Positions 14,312 through 33,354 of a stretch of DNA of 64,000 bases are shown here, piece after piece (the stretch's first letter is position 1; each line of letters begins with the position of its first letter). This stretch comes from a virus: positions 32,001 through 96,000 of IMG/VR virus record IMGVR_UViG_3300027863_000020. The stretch is one strand, 5' to 3'. Both the position numbers and the translations under genes were made by a program. Below the pieces are notes generated by a model. That model was not told the DNA's origin. It did no database searches and was given only the letters and a program-made list of their open reading frames with translations.

Positions 14312-14947
14312 GTGACTATGCAGATTCATTCAGGGTTCAACGAGAACGCCCAACACTTCTTCGATTCTCTTGATGCCGACTTCGTGCCACAGAAACCCGT
14401 GGCAATCCCCGCCACAGCGTCCGTAAGAGCGTCTGAAGAGGCATGGGGTAGTTCGGGCGGGTTGCCACAGGAAACCCCGCCACAGCCCCCCGTACAGGCG
14501 AATACGGTGGCTCAATTGCCCGATCCCAAGACAGTCGAGCCAATTGATCGGAATTCGTATGACTTTCTGGACAGGTCGTATCGGGACAACATAACGACAA
14601 TTGAGCAAGCGATTTCACAGATCGAGGGCGAAATCATGCCCGGTGCTCATCCGAAGCTATTGGAATCGTATGCTCAATTACTGGAAAGACGGACAAGCGC
14701 AATCAATTCTTACACGGAATTCCTCAAATTGAGGCGAAAGTCCGAAATTGAGGAACGAAAAATTCGCATAGCCGAAAAGAAAGCGGGTATGGGTGTGAAG
14801 ACGGGTGATGCTCCGTCCAATGGGCTTACCATGAGTCCCCGTCAATTGGCAGAATTCATGCGTGAATTGGATGCTTCGAGGATGAGCGAAATTCCTGAAG
14901 CAGAAGAAGTACCTTCCGATGGGAAGCCCGATAGGAGCTTTGAGTAA
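14312..14947 (+). CDS. gp16: Terminase small subunit
   Basis: 'YDFLDRSYRDNI', 'HPKLLESYAQLL'; directly upstream of and coupled to gp17. Confidence 0.7.
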   Translation: MTMQIHSGFNENAQHFFDSLDADFVPQKPVAIPATASVRASEEAWGSSGGLPQETPPQPPVQANTVAQLPDPKTVEPIDRNSYDFLDRSYRDNITTIEQAISQIEGEIMPGAHPKLLESYAQLLERRTSAINSYTEFLKLRRKSEIEERKIRIAEKKAGMGVKTGDAPSNGLTMSPRQLAEFMRELDASRMSEIPEAEEVPSDGKPDRSFE

Positions 14948-17913
14948 TGGCGTTTCGTGGCAATCCAAGACTCCGTGGTCATAGGGAGACATACGAGTAT
15001 TCCGAAGCAGAATTGACGGAATATCTCAAATGCCGTGCCGACTTTGAGTATTGGGCAGAGAAGTATGCCAAGATTGCCACTCTTGATGATGGTATTGTGA
15101 CCATCAAGCTACGGGGATACCAGAAGAGGATGATCCGAACGATCAAGAACCTTCCCAAACAGGGGAAGCGTGGAATGGTCGTATTGGCTCCCCGTCAATG
15201 TGGAAAGACCACGGGCATCTATCTGTACATCCTATGGCTAATCATTTTCTTCGAGTACAAGCGTGTTGCCATCATCGCCAACAAGGGCGCAAACGCCCGT
15301 AAGGTGATCCGTGACATCAAGCAAGCCTACGAATTTTTGCCACTCTGGATGCAACCCGGTGTCAAGGACGGTGGGTGGAGCAAGGGTTCGATTGAGCTTG
15401 AGAACGGTTCTATGGTGGTGTCTGGTTCGACTACGAGCGATTCGATCCGTGGTCAAACCTTCCATTGTTTGTCTGGTCGTAGTGAAGTAATCGTCCGTTT
15501 CGCAAATGGCGAAGTCTATAAAACGACAATGCGGGGGTTGAACGAACAGGATGAAAGTACATTCGTCAAATTAAACAATGTATATTTCGGTAATGACCGA
15601 CCTGTTTCTGAAAAACAAATATCTGGATTGGTACAACCGAATAATGCTTTCGGATTGGAGCGGTATGACCGAACTCCATCACATAATCCCACGAAGCCTT
15701 GGTGGTACGGATGCTCCGTCAAACCTGAAGCGATTGAGCGTAAAAGCTCATTTGGTAGCACATCATTTATTGACCAGAATAACCACGGGACAACATTTGC
15801 GGAAAATGCTATTCGCTTATGCTCAAATGATGTCGGGAAGACAGGGAAAACTTGTGGGGATGGACTGGAAATCCCAGAAAGTAGCCATTCGTCAATTGGC
15901 AGAGAGTCAATCGAAACGGATGAAAGGAGTTCGTTTGACAGAGGAATGGAAGAGACGGATTTCGGAATCCAACAAGGGAAAAACTTTGTCGAAAGAAACC
16001 AGAATCAGAATATCGGTTTCCAAGAAAGGAAATTTGAAGGGCGTTCCGAAGACGAACGAACACAAGCGGAAAATATCGGAAGCGAATACGGGGAATCCCC
16101 GTCCGTATGTTGTGAAAATGAACAAGAATCCAGAGAAGATTCGCAAGACAGCGGAAAAACATCGTGGAATGAAACGAAGCGAAAAATCACGAGAATTGAT
16201 GAGCCAACAACGGAAAGGGAAACCGTCTCCGTTGAAGGGGGTTCGTGGAATCATATCGGAAGAGACACGAGAGAAGATGCGTCAATCAGCAATTCTTCGA
16301 GTACAGCGTTTGGGGATTTGTGGGGACAAGACATTGAAGTCTTCACCGATGAAGGATGGAAACGATTTGAAGGGTGTGTAAACAATGGCTTTAAGAAAAC
16401 TTGGAGATTGAACCTATCAAATGGATTGACGATTGGTGCAACGGACAATCACGAATTCTCTACATACCGTGGGTGGGTTCGCCTTGATGCTCTTCAATCG
16501 GACGATATGGTCGATACAGTACATGGTCAATCCAATGTAGCATCAATCGAATATGTTGGCGAAGAGGATGTATATGATCTACTCAATGTAGAAGACATCC
16601 ATTGTTTCTACTCCAATGGAATAAAAGTCCATAATTGCGTGTACATTGACGAATACGCATTTATTCCAAAACACGCCGCCGATGACTTTATGAAGTCGGT
16701 TCTCCCGACTATCCTATCTGGAAAATCGGCTCAATTGTTTGCGACAAGTACCCCCAAGGGAATGAACCAGTTTTGGCGAATGTGGAGAAAGGCCGAAGCG
16801 GGTAAGGGTATGCTTGTACCCGTCAAGATCGACTATACCGAAGTTCCGAACTATACCAAGCCCGAATTCAAGAAGATGATTATTGAAACGGAAGGCTTGG
16901 CGACATGGAGACAGGAATTCGAGTGCAAGTTCCTTGGATCGTCCAAGACTCTAATCAATGCAGAATGCCTTGAAGAAATGGCACTGAAGCTACTCCCAGA
17001 ACCAATCGTCCGTCATTTCGATGACAAGTTCAAGATATGGGAGAAGCCTTCCAAGGGCGCAAGCTACATCCTTGCCGTGGACAGTGGAAAGGGTGTCGGT
17101 GGTGATTACTCCATCGTACAGGTTCTCCGAATCTATGGAATGCACAAAGCAGAACAGGTTGCGGTCTTTGCCGACAACTATACCCCAATCAACGACTTTG
17201 CCCAAATCTGCGTGTCAATCGCACGGTATTACAACAATTCGGAAATCATTGTCGAGAACAACGATCTTGGTGGTGTCCTTTGCGAACGAATCTTTGAACA
17301 ACTTGGATATGACCGTCTGGTTTCCTATGAGAAGGATTACTTCGGTGTTCGCTCGAACAAGAAGAACAAGGCCATTGGCAATATCGCCCTACGAGAATAC
17401 ATCGAGTCGAATTGGGTCAAGCTCAATGATGAAGAGACCGTAAAGGAATTTTCGTTCTACGAAGAAGTCCGTGACAATGTGTTCCAAGCAATCGAGGGCG
17501 AACATGATGACCGTGTGATGAGCCTTCTTTGGGCATTGTTCTGGTTGAAATCCAACTCCGAATTCGAGGATGAGGGTATCAATCAGATCAATGCACGGTT
17601 CCGAATCCATGACAAGGAATTGGGATACGAGGATACTGGAATGGGTGACGGGGATGCCGACTGGATGGGTGGCGGTGGTTCCACGGGTGACTGGTTGGGT
17701 GATTCCGATTCCCGTCAATCTGCGTCAATTTTCGGAAAAAGTGCCACAGCCGACAACCTATTCTCTGGTTTTGGCGGTGGGGACGATGACTTTTTTGGGT
17801 CTATGAAGGTAGGTGCGAATTCACCGAACCACAATTCAATGAGATTTGAGAACGGTGGGTACAGGCATTCAAACGGTGCTTTGGCGTTTGAGGATGATAT
17901 ACCGTCTCTCTGA
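14947..17913 (+). CDS. gp17: Terminase large subunit, intein-containing (988-aa precursor, about 598 aa spliced)
   Basis: Walker A 'PRQCGKTT', Walker B 'YIDEYAF', 'STPKG', 'QEFEC.F.GS', nuclease 'AVDSGKGVGGDYS', 'HDDRVM'. Confidence 0.95.
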   Translation: MAFRGNPRLRGHRETYEYSEAELTEYLKCRADFEYWAEKYAKIATLDDGIVTIKLRGYQKRMIRTIKNLPKQGKRGMVVLAPRQCGKTTGIYLYILWLIIFFEYKRVAIIANKGANARKVIRDIKQAYEFLPLWMQPGVKDGGWSKGSIELENGSMVVSGSTTSDSIRGQTFHCLSGRSEVIVRFANGEVYKTTMRGLNEQDESTFVKLNNVYFGNDRPVSEKQISGLVQPNNAFGLERYDRTPSHNPTKPWWYGCSVKPEAIERKSSFGSTSFIDQNNHGTTFAENAIRLCSNDVGKTGKTCGDGLEIPESSHSSIGRESIETDERSSFDRGMEETDFGIQQGKNFVERNQNQNIGFQERKFEGRSEDERTQAENIGSEYGESPSVCCENEQESREDSQDSGKTSWNETKRKITRIDEPTTERETVSVEGGSWNHIGRDTREDASISNSSSTAFGDLWGQDIEVFTDEGWKRFEGCVNNGFKKTWRLNLSNGLTIGATDNHEFSTYRGWVRLDALQSDDMVDTVHGQSNVASIEYVGEEDVYDLLNVEDIHCFYSNGIKVHNCVYIDEYAFIPKHAADDFMKSVLPTILSGKSAQLFATSTPKGMNQFWRMWRKAEAGKGMLVPVKIDYTEVPNYTKPEFKKMIIETEGLATWRQEFECKFLGSSKTLINAECLEEMALKLLPEPIVRHFDDKFKIWEKPSKGASYILAVDSGKGVGGDYSIVQVLRIYGMHKAEQVAVFADNYTPINDFAQICVSIARYYNNSEIIVENNDLGGVLCERIFEQLGYDRLVSYEKDYFGVRSNKKNKAIGNIALREYIESNWVKLNDEETVKEFSFYEEVRDNVFQAIEGEHDDRVMSLLWALFWLKSNSEFEDEGINQINARFRIHDKELGYEDTGMGDGDADWMGGGGSTGDWLGDSDSRQSASIFGKSATADNLFSGFGGGDDDFFGSMKVGANSPNHNSMRFENGGYRHSNGALAFEDDIPSL
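15466..16635 (+). mobile_element. Intein (390 aa) inserted just before terminase Walker B
   Basis: Starts C1 'CLSGRSEV', block B 'ATDNH', block F 'DVYDL', ends 'NGIKVHN', +1 Cys; removal restores 'SIRGQTFH/CVYIDEYAF'. Confidence 0.93.
15593..16381 (+). CDS. HNH homing endonuclease with NUMOD3-like repeats, in the +1 frame inside the intein
   Basis: 'ELHHIIPRSLGGTDAPSNLKRLSVKAHLVAHHLL' HNH core; repeats 'KGKTLSKETRIRIS', 'KGVPKTNEHKRKIS', 'RGMKRSEKSRELMS'; alternative start 15578. Confidence 0.9.
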   Translation: MTDLFLKNKYLDWYNRIMLSDWSGMTELHHIIPRSLGGTDAPSNLKRLSVKAHLVAHHLLTRITTGQHLRKMLFAYAQMMSGRQGKLVGMDWKSQKVAIRQLAESQSKRMKGVRLTEEWKRRISESNKGKTLSKETRIRISVSKKGNLKGVPKTNEHKRKISEANTGNPRPYVVKMNKNPEKIRKTAEKHRGMKRSEKSRELMSQQRKGKPSPLKGVRGIISEETREKMRQSAILRVQRLGICGDKTLKSSPMKDGNDLKGV

Positions 17914-31849: not shown

Positions 31850-33354
31850 GTGTGTTGATGCGATTCATTCCCGACCCATCCATCACTAAACAGGATGGAT
31901 CAAAACTGGATGTGATTGAAGTTCCTTTCGATTACAAGAACAAGTCTTTGGTGATGGGCAAGTATTCCAAGTACAAGCCAGAAGCTCTCGACCATGATTT
32001 TTTGAAATCGTTGGTGATCGAAGACTTTATCAAAGAGCCGTTGGTTTTCCCCATTGGGTACGAGGGGATTAGTCGGTCTGAAGTTCTGTACGAGCTTCCG
32101 CTATTCCGAAAAGAACGAGTTTCCCCGTATCACAGATATGAGTTCGTGGTTGTCAATGAGAAGGTTCTAATCGACAACGACACACGATTGCCCGATTTCA
32201 ACTGGTTCCGTGATTGTGACATCCATTTCACAGGAACTACTCCAATGTTCATTCCATATAGGTTCGTCAATTGCGCCCTATATGGCAAACATTCGGACAA
32301 GAATATCAAGCCATTCTCATCTTCTCTCTATTTCCATTTGCAGACTGTTATTGGTGGTGGTAGTCGAGCCGATGGTGCGTTTCTGAAGAACTGTACCGTG
32401 AACGACATTCGTTTCAAGATGACCAATTTTGAAGGCTCTGCTTATACCGTACCCATCGAAGGCGGTGCTCTCAACAAATGTACTTTCGAGGTGACTACAA
32501 AGAACATCGGTACAGGAACCGTCACTACGAAGCAAGTTGGTCATGCAATTGCTCTCAAGAATGTATCTATTTCCAAAACTGAATTTGGCTCGATTGATGT
32601 CTTTGCCGAAAATTGCGAAGGTATCATTTCCGCAACCAGACCTACCAAATTACAGGGTGTTGGTAATTCGGTCATCGTCAATAACACGAATGGAACGAAT
32701 CCCCCTAGCGTTTTCGTTGGGGATGAATGTACTTCGTTGCAAGTTGTCAATTTGACTAAATCGGAAATGAATGTGATGTTCCAGAACAGGGACTATGCGA
32801 AAGACCGATTCGCTATGTTTACCAACCTGTATGTCAATGGAAACATTCGTCTTTCCGCACAAATGACTACATTCGCAACCACGATGCGGGAACAGTTCGA
32901 TAGGAGTGGACACAAACAATCCAATGCCCAAATCGTAGTCAATACTTCAAACACCGCTCCCGACACTATGGGGAACCACGATTGGCGACTCACCGAAGAA
33001 TACATGGGCGATTTCTTCAAAGCGAAGGAATCCTTTTCGGATAAAACACAACTGCATATTCCAGACAATTTGCTTGGAACCTTTGTCTTTTCATCGAAGC
33101 GGATAACCGTCAATGGGGACAATCTGCTTGGTCTAATCATCACCACATTGAGCAATATAAATGACCATAGCGAAATCAAGCTGAAGGACGATGTGCTCAA
33201 TCAGGTTATCCTATTGCTTCACAATGGGATGAAAAACGAAGTTCCCAAGGATATGGACTTTGGGACTGAAGAGGGGAAGCCGATTATCGAAAAGATCGTA
33301 CTTCGTGCTTTCAGATTGTACAAGATTTGTCACCTTGCAAAGAGGGTTCTGTAA
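31846..33354 (+). CDS. Beta-solenoid paralog family member 2
   Basis: 'FVNC', 'LKNC', 'QVVNLTKS', 'VNGDNLL'. Confidence 0.7.
   Translation: MSVLMRFIPDPSITKQDGSKLDVIEVPFDYKNKSLVMGKYSKYKPEALDHDFLKSLVIEDFIKEPLVFPIGYEGISRSEVLYELPLFRKERVSPYHRYEFVVVNEKVLIDNDTRLPDFNWFRDCDIHFTGTTPMFIPYRFVNCALYGKHSDKNIKPFSSSLYFHLQTVIGGGSRADGAFLKNCTVNDIRFKMTNFEGSAYTVPIEGGALNKCTFEVTTKNIGTGTVTTKQVGHAIALKNVSISKTEFGSIDVFAENCEGIISATRPTKLQGVGNSVIVNNTNGTNPPSVFVGDECTSLQVVNLTKSEMNVMFQNRDYAKDRFAMFTNLYVNGNIRLSAQMTTFATTMREQFDRSGHKQSNAQIVVNTSNTAPDTMGNHDWRLTEEYMGDFFKAKESFSDKTQLHIPDNLLGTFVFSSKRITVNGDNLLGLIITTLSNINDHSEIKLKDDVLNQVILLLHNGMKNEVPKDMDFGTEEGKPIIEKIVLRAFRLYKICHLAKRVL

Follow-up and report, generated by a model that had tools for sequence, protein, structure and literature searches.

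The large terminase (TerL) gene of a T4-like phage is interrupted by an intein whose DNA also encodes, in the +1 reading frame, a complete HNH-NUMOD3 homing endonuclease, and both of these frames are held open by selection. The arrangement is located in a 64,000-nucleotide stretch of viral DNA, hereafter the window (positions 32,001 to 96,000 of IMG/VR record IMGVR_UViG_3300027863_000020), which carries a T4-type late-gene block and comes from a virus record of 150,817 bp that was judged to be complete. We read it as a composite selfish element, consisting of a TerL intein that is predicted to be spliced out and of a homing HNH enzyme that would be made separately from the +1 frame, and assign to this reading a probability of roughly 0.8. 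The element offers a clean and quantifiable two-frame case, in which selection keeps one frame free of stops only and preserves the protein of the other.

Selection on both reading frames

An earlier note on this DNA, made from the letters alone, had proposed that the 390-codon intein frame is open throughout, that its middle carries no endonuclease motif, and that an intact HNH nuclease with NUMOD3-like repeats occupies the +1 frame at 15593-16381, and all three points hold. Within the 390-codon stretch there are no stops in frame 0 and 34 in frame +2, and the +1 frame is stop-free from 15575 to 16381. When searched with Pfam, the intein frame matched Intein_splicing alone, and this at the two ends of the intein only; the +1 open reading frame (ORF) matched NUMOD3 in three stretches (E 2e-14), as well as the PHROG 655 family, annotated as 'homing endonuclease' (E 5e-31).

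A stop in frame 0 requires an HNH codon ending in T to stand before a codon that starts with AA, AG or GA. Since such a stop would destroy TerL, T-ending codons in these places are selected against, and the rule to this effect that the earlier note had formulated turned out to be exact: in the window, a T-ending codon precedes 0 of the 80 HNH codons starting with AA, AG or GA, as compared to 55 of the 187 other codons. The strength of this avoidance was computed by shuffles in which the HNH protein was fixed and synonymous codons were redrawn, 20,000 times per sequence. The number of intein-frame stops expected in the window was 13.5 with the ORF's own codons and 18.1 with the codon usage of the genome, against none observed, and no stop-free shuffle (0/20,000) was obtained either for the window or for any of five relatives, for which 11-25 stops were expected. 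Relatives in which terL is fractured require no read-through and thus serve as natural controls; these carry 37-59 stops in the corresponding frame.

The manner in which the two frames are constrained differs. When six diverged sequences are compared, HNH codon positions 1, 2 and 3 show mismatch rates of 0.44, 0.37 and 0.62, so that the third HNH position is the most variable base, which is the normal signature of coding DNA for the HNH frame and its inverse for the intein frame; in the same set, amino-acid identity averages 46% per pair for the HNH frame, as compared to 24% for the intein frame. The same holds between close strains, where 13 single-nucleotide polymorphisms within the overlap separate a wastewater strain from the window: read in the HNH frame, they comprise 9 synonymous and 4 non-synonymous changes, and read in the intein frame, 1 synonymous and 12 non-synonymous changes, with no new stop in either frame. 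Indels that would place the HNH gene in frame with the intein were also looked for, and none was found in this stretch in contigs from four other runs (hot spring, freshwater, wastewater). Both frames are therefore held open by selection, as had been suspected and as is borne out by the shuffles and by some 40 diverged relatives with the same layout, and purifying selection acts on the HNH frame only.

The intein and the position of the nested gene

The Pfam (Terminase_6N and Terminase_6C) and PHROG terminase matches of the TerL ORF are broken between residues 174 and 563, where the intein is inserted (Table 1). Its residues C1, T326, H329, H389 and N390 are invariant across 17 relatives, as is Cys+1. 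Cys1 and Cys+1 agree with the residues of a class-1 intein (Cys or Ser at position 1; Cys, Ser or Thr at +1), and the C-terminal sequence VHN supplies the His-Asn pair that ends inteins of this class. A single stop-free ORF spans the whole, which sets it apart from naturally split inteins, in which two genes give rise to products that splice in trans. With an essential host gene and intact residues, splicing of the window intein would be expected.

AlphaFold, run with a 17-sequence alignment, brings intein residues 1-28 and 288-390 together in a HINT fold with a pLDDT (predicted local distance difference test) score of 75-97, and models residues 29-287 as disordered, without secondary structure and with a pLDDT of approximately 28 (all below 50). 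In Foldseek, the folded part matches the NpuDnaB, gp41-1, VidaL and Cat inteins with E values of 1e-9 to 1e-4, and reaches a probability of 1.00 and target template modelling (TM) scores of 0.6-0.75 with the NpuDnaB, gp41-1, RecA and VidaL inteins. The IntC-like part is recognizable as well by sequence, matching the NpuDnaB intein at E 8e-9, and residues 288-389 match CatC (6dsl_B), weakly yet over its full length by phmmer (E 7.7e-4) and with 29% identity over 101 columns by Foldseek (E 8e-5).

The canonical place for an endonuclease is between blocks B and F, but the nuclease gene here precedes block B and separates block A from the remainder of the splicing domain. The folded pieces consequently comprise 28 and 103 residues, which places the break point where the atypically split terminase inteins have theirs. 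Judged by these features, the window intein is a contiguous relative of the AceL/GOS/Cat-TerL family that lacks its defining split.

The intervening loop is strongly hydrophilic, and it could be asked whether this property is itself selected. The hydropathy of residues 29-287 equals that of the stop-free synonymous null or is slightly less hydrophilic (z -0.4 to +2.7), and additional selection for hydrophilicity was hence rejected; since the null predicts the loop's hydropathy, no constraint on the loop other than stop avoidance can be detected. The middle of the intein frame is a passenger. The suggestion that the off-frame polypeptide is non-functional is in line with its low identity as compared to that of the HNH frame (24% vs 46%) and with its pLDDT.

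The HNH-NUMOD3 endonuclease

None of the HNH catalytic residues (H29, H30, N44, H53, H57) varies among the 17 relatives. In an AlphaFold model of the protein, whose mean pLDDT is 79 and exceeds 90 over the first 110 residues, two strands (26-30 and 45-49) and a helix (50-63) build a beta-beta-alpha core around the invariant HH...N...H...H pattern, and a profile search matched this core to the Cas8-HNH motif. Residues 242-262 are of low confidence in the model, and in alignment columns beyond 240 the codon-position pattern flips to that of the intein frame; true overlap between two proteins is thus minimal, being confined to the HNH tail.

Further downstream, the HNH frame contains the hyper-conserved motif NKNPEKIRKTAEKHRGMKRS, whose third codon positions are free to vary, indicating that conservation operates at the level of the protein. 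The motif is probably a DNA-binding module. A near-invariant 20-residue form of NKNPEKIRKTAEKHRGMKRS is common to HNH and GIY-YIG-type nucleases, all of which are encoded in or beside terL; further copies were located at L048:3241, L058:3151, L052:2298, L070:3145, L075:3178 and L088:4053 (locus:position). From this distribution, NKNPEKIRKTAEKHRGMKRS looks like a portable DNA-binding module for a terL target that has been swapped among nuclease families.

The nested HNH gene is absent from the public protein collection, in which it was not called. Gene callers miss such nested genes, and homing endonucleases of this kind are therefore under-counted in phage genomes.

Table 1. Features of the TerL gene, its intein and the nested endonuclease gene; positions are counted from the first nucleotide of the window.
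Feature	Position	Strand	Remarks
TerL (T4 gp17-like large terminase) precursor ORF	14947..17913	+	988 aa; 598 aa after predicted splicing
Class-1 intein, 390 codons, Cys1-Asn390	15466..16635	+	invariant residues, HINT model, Foldseek
IntN-like part, residues 1-28, block A	15466..15549	+	pLDDT 75-94; two strands and a helix
Read-through loop of intein frame, residues 29-287	15550..16326	+	off-frame translation of HNH gene
IntC-like part, residues 288-390, block B and blocks F/G ending in HN	16327..16635	+	pLDDT 87-97
Block B, TDNH	16441..16452	+	TxxH motif
Cys+1 codon TGC, first C-extein residue	16636..16638	+	directly 5' of Walker B (VYIDE)
HNH-NUMOD3 homing endonuclease gene, 262 aa and stop	15593..16381	+	+1 frame; stop codon 16379-16381
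HNH catalytic core HH..N..H..H (H29, H30, N44, H53, H57)	15677..15766	+	invariant columns and beta-beta-alpha model
Hyper-conserved HNH-frame motif NKNPEKIRKTAEKHRGMKRS	16121..16180	+	third codon positions vary freely
HNH tail (residues 242-262) over first IntC strands	16316..16381	+	only real two-protein overlap
Candidate internal -10-like element, TG + TATATT (15581-15586) + 6 nt + ATG	15579..15592	+	putative function

Start and expression of the nested gene

The ATG at 15593 is the best start of the nested gene and lines up with the start that is conserved in all relatives; the ATG at 15578 is an in-frame alternative. In all relatives a Met is found 1-3 residues upstream of an invariant NKY motif, and among 17 relatives, 6 have a Shine-Dalgarno sequence before it, as opposed to 6% of background ATGs. 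The geometry TATATT-N6-ATG is common to the window and its nearest relative, L001. Independent translation of the HNH protein is likely in view of these features.

In other relatives, a different element is seen at this place. TATAAATA stands 11-12 nt 5' of the HNH ATG in L020, L022, L023, L026 and L034, as does ATAAATA in L011, L035 and L036. TATAAATA resembles a T4 late promoter and occurs at this fixed, short distance in an otherwise unconstrained part of the intein frame; transcripts that started from such elements would have a very short leader or none at all.

States at the terL locus and mobility

A TerL protein search returned long-intein relatives at 29-63% identity, and the five of them with available DNA all encode an HNH-NUMOD3 protein of 245-272 aa in the +1 frame of a stop-free terminase frame. 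The HNH alignment, when used to search IMG/VR, retrieved 80 loci, approximately 35 of which have the overprinted layout, and in total this layout is known from the window and about 40 loci.

Five states can be distinguished at terL. In the first, a free-standing nuclease gene abuts an intein-less terL (P0121, with 43% identity to the window HNH, L039, L070 and L075). In the second, terL is fractured and the nuclease gene lies between its two halves, the intein being split at the same break and located at the same extein site (L052, L058). The third is an in-frame fusion of N-extein, IntN and nuclease that ends in a stop and is followed by Met, IntC and C-extein, the nuclease being of the HNH type in L027-29 and of the GIY-YIG type in L048. 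The fourth is the overprinted, contiguous intein of the window and its approximately 40 counterparts, and in the fifth the nuclease is absent, leaving either a 127-aa mini-intein at the same site of a 725-aa TerL (P0003, known from its protein) or an empty site in a 567-aa TerL without intein (P0006). At L027:1124-3900, and likewise in L028 and L029, Met, IntC and C-extein resume in the same frame directly after the stop; a locus of this type is, as its sequence indicates, a split intein that carries the endonuclease on its N fragment.

On the HNH tree the overprinted group requires just one change of state and spans more than 1 substitution per site, which marks the arrangement as old and stable. 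Evidence for mobility on a shorter time scale is provided by P0004, in which the cassette is present, and P0006, in which it is absent: their exteins are 95-99% identical, the DNA that flanks these shows 85-95% identity, and the empty site is precise. Such a pair implies either recent gain or precise loss. As regards deeper relationships, the TerL C-extein tree places the window, L001 and L002 on a branch of approximately 3.5 substitutions per site that has no counterpart in the HNH tree, and these branch lengths suggest broader horizontal transfer. No claim of horizontal transfer is made from incongruence of the trees, since an approximately unbiased (AU) test retains the monophyly of the window, L001 and L002 (p = 0.30).

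Relatives without an intein or with a mini-intein, which the earlier note had suggested looking for, are represented by P0006 and P0003. The earlier note had further supposed that a free-standing endonuclease invaded a mini-intein. The mini-intein of P0003 and the free-standing genes of P0121 and L039 fit this proposal; its direction remains less certain, as the same states are compatible with a later deletion of the endonuclease.

A side observation concerns L088, where a free-standing HNH gene lies upstream of terL, and a second small NUMOD3 ORF of 65 aa (L088:6424-6621), found between terL and the sheath gene, may be the remnant of another endonuclease gene.

Proposed mechanism and alternative explanations

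In the mechanism that we propose, a small class-1 intein interrupts the TerL of a 150.8-kb T4-like phage directly before Walker B, and a HNH-NUMOD3 gene of the free-standing type is nested in its +1 frame, in the loop that follows block A. Ribosomes translating TerL would pass through the endonuclease DNA in frame 0, generating a hydrophilic, disordered loop about 259 residues long; the N part (28 residues) and the C part (103 residues) would fold as one HINT domain and then splice, converting the 988-aa precursor to a 598-aa TerL. The HNH protein would be made separately from its own ATG at 15593 and, in mixed infections, would be expected to cut intein-less terL alleles, so that repair would copy the whole 1170-bp cassette into the cleaved allele. 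The openness of both frames under selection, the purifying selection that is confined to the HNH frame, the intact splicing residues with the predicted fold that joins them, and the presence/absence polymorphism at terL are the observed elements of this scheme, to which splicing, independent translation, cleavage specificity and homing are added by inference.

A number of observations weigh against parts of this interpretation. The Pfam HNH match of the +1 ORF is weak (E 1e-3, 19.6 bits vs a 21.4-bit cut-off), and the HNH model retrieved nothing from the PDB at E <= 0.001 by Foldseek and generic helical matches only, with Z <= 6.4 and no clear nuclease, by a wide VIA-align search. The HNH start in the window is preceded by no Shine-Dalgarno sequence, only by the weak -10-like TATATT. 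The empty site has Ala (GCA) rather than Cys (TGC) at position +1, as the comparison of the intein-less allele of a closely related phage (L087:3001-4704) with L001:3001-5886 shows. With Ala at this position, homing would have to co-convert the codon, or else the empty allele may represent a cleavage-resistant or never-invaded site. The AU result also keeps the HNH tree compatible with vertical co-inheritance with TerL, and the case for ongoing homing would be carried mainly by one presence/absence pair.

The last points would suit a cassette that is an immobile relic, in which the HNH gene decays and the terminase frame alone is selected: the AU test (p = 0.30) keeps vertical inheritance, and the window start has no Shine-Dalgarno sequence. 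Such a state is nevertheless highly unlikely, as the HNH frame carries a purifying signature both at deep divergence and at the level of strains, its catalytic residues are invariant throughout the 17 relatives, and no broken HNH gene within an open intein frame was found among the 80 IMG/VR loci.

HNH proteins assist the terminases of HK97-like cos phages, and the fact that the HNH gene is always located in or beside terL could be taken to mean that it, too, has been domesticated as an accessory to packaging rather than acting in homing. We consider this very improbable. Close relatives exist without the HNH gene, one with an empty site (P0006) and one with a mini-intein (P0003); the NUMOD3 repeats are typical of homing endonucleases; the C-terminal module is common with GIY-YIG nucleases of fractured terL genes; and T4-type TerL possesses a nuclease domain of its own (Terminase_6C).

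Less probable still is that the HNH protein arises by +1 frameshifting as a fusion of N-extein, IntN and HNH, or that the assembly hides two compensating indels. The same +1 arrangement recurs in some 40 independent assemblies, the contigs of four other runs are free of indels, no slippery site was noticed, and a Met start is conserved in all relatives, 6 of 17 having a Shine-Dalgarno sequence. In-frame IntN fusions of the same HNH family do exist (L027-L029, L041-L045), which makes a fusion viable as an endonuclease, but these relatives have found another solution, with a stop that divides TerL.

Finally, the notion that the open intein frame is a by-product of chance or composition (the HNH gene is purine-rich, which lowers the number of stops in some frames), or that the insert is a group I intron, is refuted by the composition-preserving shuffles, stop-free in 0 of 20,000 for each of six sequences, by the 37-59 stops of the fractured-gene relatives, and by the presence of all intein catalytic residues and a HINT fold where Rfam, searched at E <= 1, detected no intron family. 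The composite selfish element thus remains the preferred reading.

Relation to known systems

Endonucleases in alternative ORFs of inteins go back, as cited in later work, to Gorbalenya 1998, and the expectation of the earlier note that the arrangement would be rare rather than unprecedented has proved correct, published precedents being at hand. Gosselin, Arsenault & Gogarten (bioRxiv 10.1101/2025.01.02.630785) described antisense LAGLIDADG and VSR-like genes in actinophage inteins, as well as a frame-3 endonuclease VII-like gene, including in TerL inteins, and listed HNH genes in frame only. Phillips et al. (bioRxiv 10.64898/2026.09.14.751524) reported frame-specific selection on a +2-frame LAGLIDADG gene in a cyanobacterial dnaX intein. 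Literature searches found no description of a HNH-NUMOD3 gene that lies out of frame in the terminase intein of a T4-like phage. Out-of-frame intein endonucleases are thus already published, and the HNH-NUMOD3 form in T4-like TerL is a new, widespread variant of them.

With non-canonical inteins of this kind, the window element has in common that the intein is contiguous and its host frame remains stop-free over an entire off-frame endonuclease gene, that the splicing blocks lie outside the nested ORF, that the nested ORF is under purifying selection with a relaxed host frame, and that a free-standing endonuclease gene is proposed to have invaded an intein. It differs from them in the type and frame of the nuclease (HNH-NUMOD3, +1), in its host, a T4-like myovirus from metagenomes, in the site of insertion between blocks A and B, and in its occurrence at about 40 deeply diverged loci. 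The overlap persists over deep divergence, although earlier authors expected such arrangements to be short-lived.

TerL inteins that are split in an atypical manner form a second group of relevance. One of them, the GOS terminase split intein, was described by Dassa et al. 2009 (PMC2677866) as 'fractured at an unusual point', all motifs except N1 being contained in its C part; in AceL-TerL, GOS-TerL and the consensus Cat intein (PDB 6DSL), IntN comprises 25-37 residues and IntC 104, and trans-splicing across this break point has been published for AceL-TerL and GOS-TerL (review PMC11766414). The window intein resembles them in its TerL host, in its insertion directly before Walker B, in the endonuclease gene at the break, in its short IntN (28 residues) and in an IntC of approximately 103 residues with all motifs except N1. 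These inteins, however, are encoded by two genes and splice in trans, whereas here a single polypeptide is bridged by off-frame translation of the endonuclease gene.

Literature searches revealed no link between out-of-frame endonuclease inteins and the AceL/GOS break point, and the loci described above join these two literatures, the second of which concerns inteins used for protein ligation. They also offer a natural series of intermediates for the origin of a split intein with an IntN of 25-30 residues. We put forward as a tentative proposal, held as a whole with slightly less than even confidence, that the overprinted contiguous intein is a long-lived sister state, and possibly the precursor, of AceL/GOS/Cat-TerL. 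As part of the same proposal, the entry of a TerL-targeting endonuclease gene into the loop of a mini-intein after block A would have created the unusual break point; shifts of the frame by one base, or just one stop, would switch lineages between overprinted cis-splicing, IntN-fused endonuclease and fractured trans-splicing forms; and the C-terminal NKNPEKIRKTAEKHRGMKRS module of HNH and GIY-YIG nucleases would recognise the Walker-B region of terL.

Two further comparisons can be made. The ShiLan domain (Arsenault et al. 2025, PMC11855218) is an out-of-frame HNH in an actinophage DNA methylase without a splicing domain; as in the window, the HNH gene is overprinted in a stop-free host gene with no obvious ribosome-binding site, and leaderless initiation was proposed there. 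Its read-through peptide stays in the host protein, whereas a complete intein is predicted to remove it here. The free-standing HNH and GIY-YIG genes of T4-like phages, in turn, have the same NUMOD3 repeats and C-terminal module, and the closest called relative of the window HNH is one of them, namely that of P0121; the window copy differs in being nested in a coding frame, where it would rely on the intein to be harmless.

Distribution and minor observations

A blastn comparison of TerL with GenBank phages gave no match. Within the TerL C-extein, an Rfam match to SCARNA18 at 17420-17500 (+) scored 24.5 bits, the gathering score being 40 (E 0.019), and is almost certainly due to chance. The sample from which the record derives is probably a hot-spring metagenome. 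Near-identical DNA to the stretch 15300-16800 was detected in hot-spring and freshwater runs of different studies (52-87% of sampled words) and in a wastewater run (30% of sampled words), and some wastewater RNA runs contain small shares of it. Its recurrence across these types of run indicates that the phage, or close strains of it, is widespread both geographically and ecologically.

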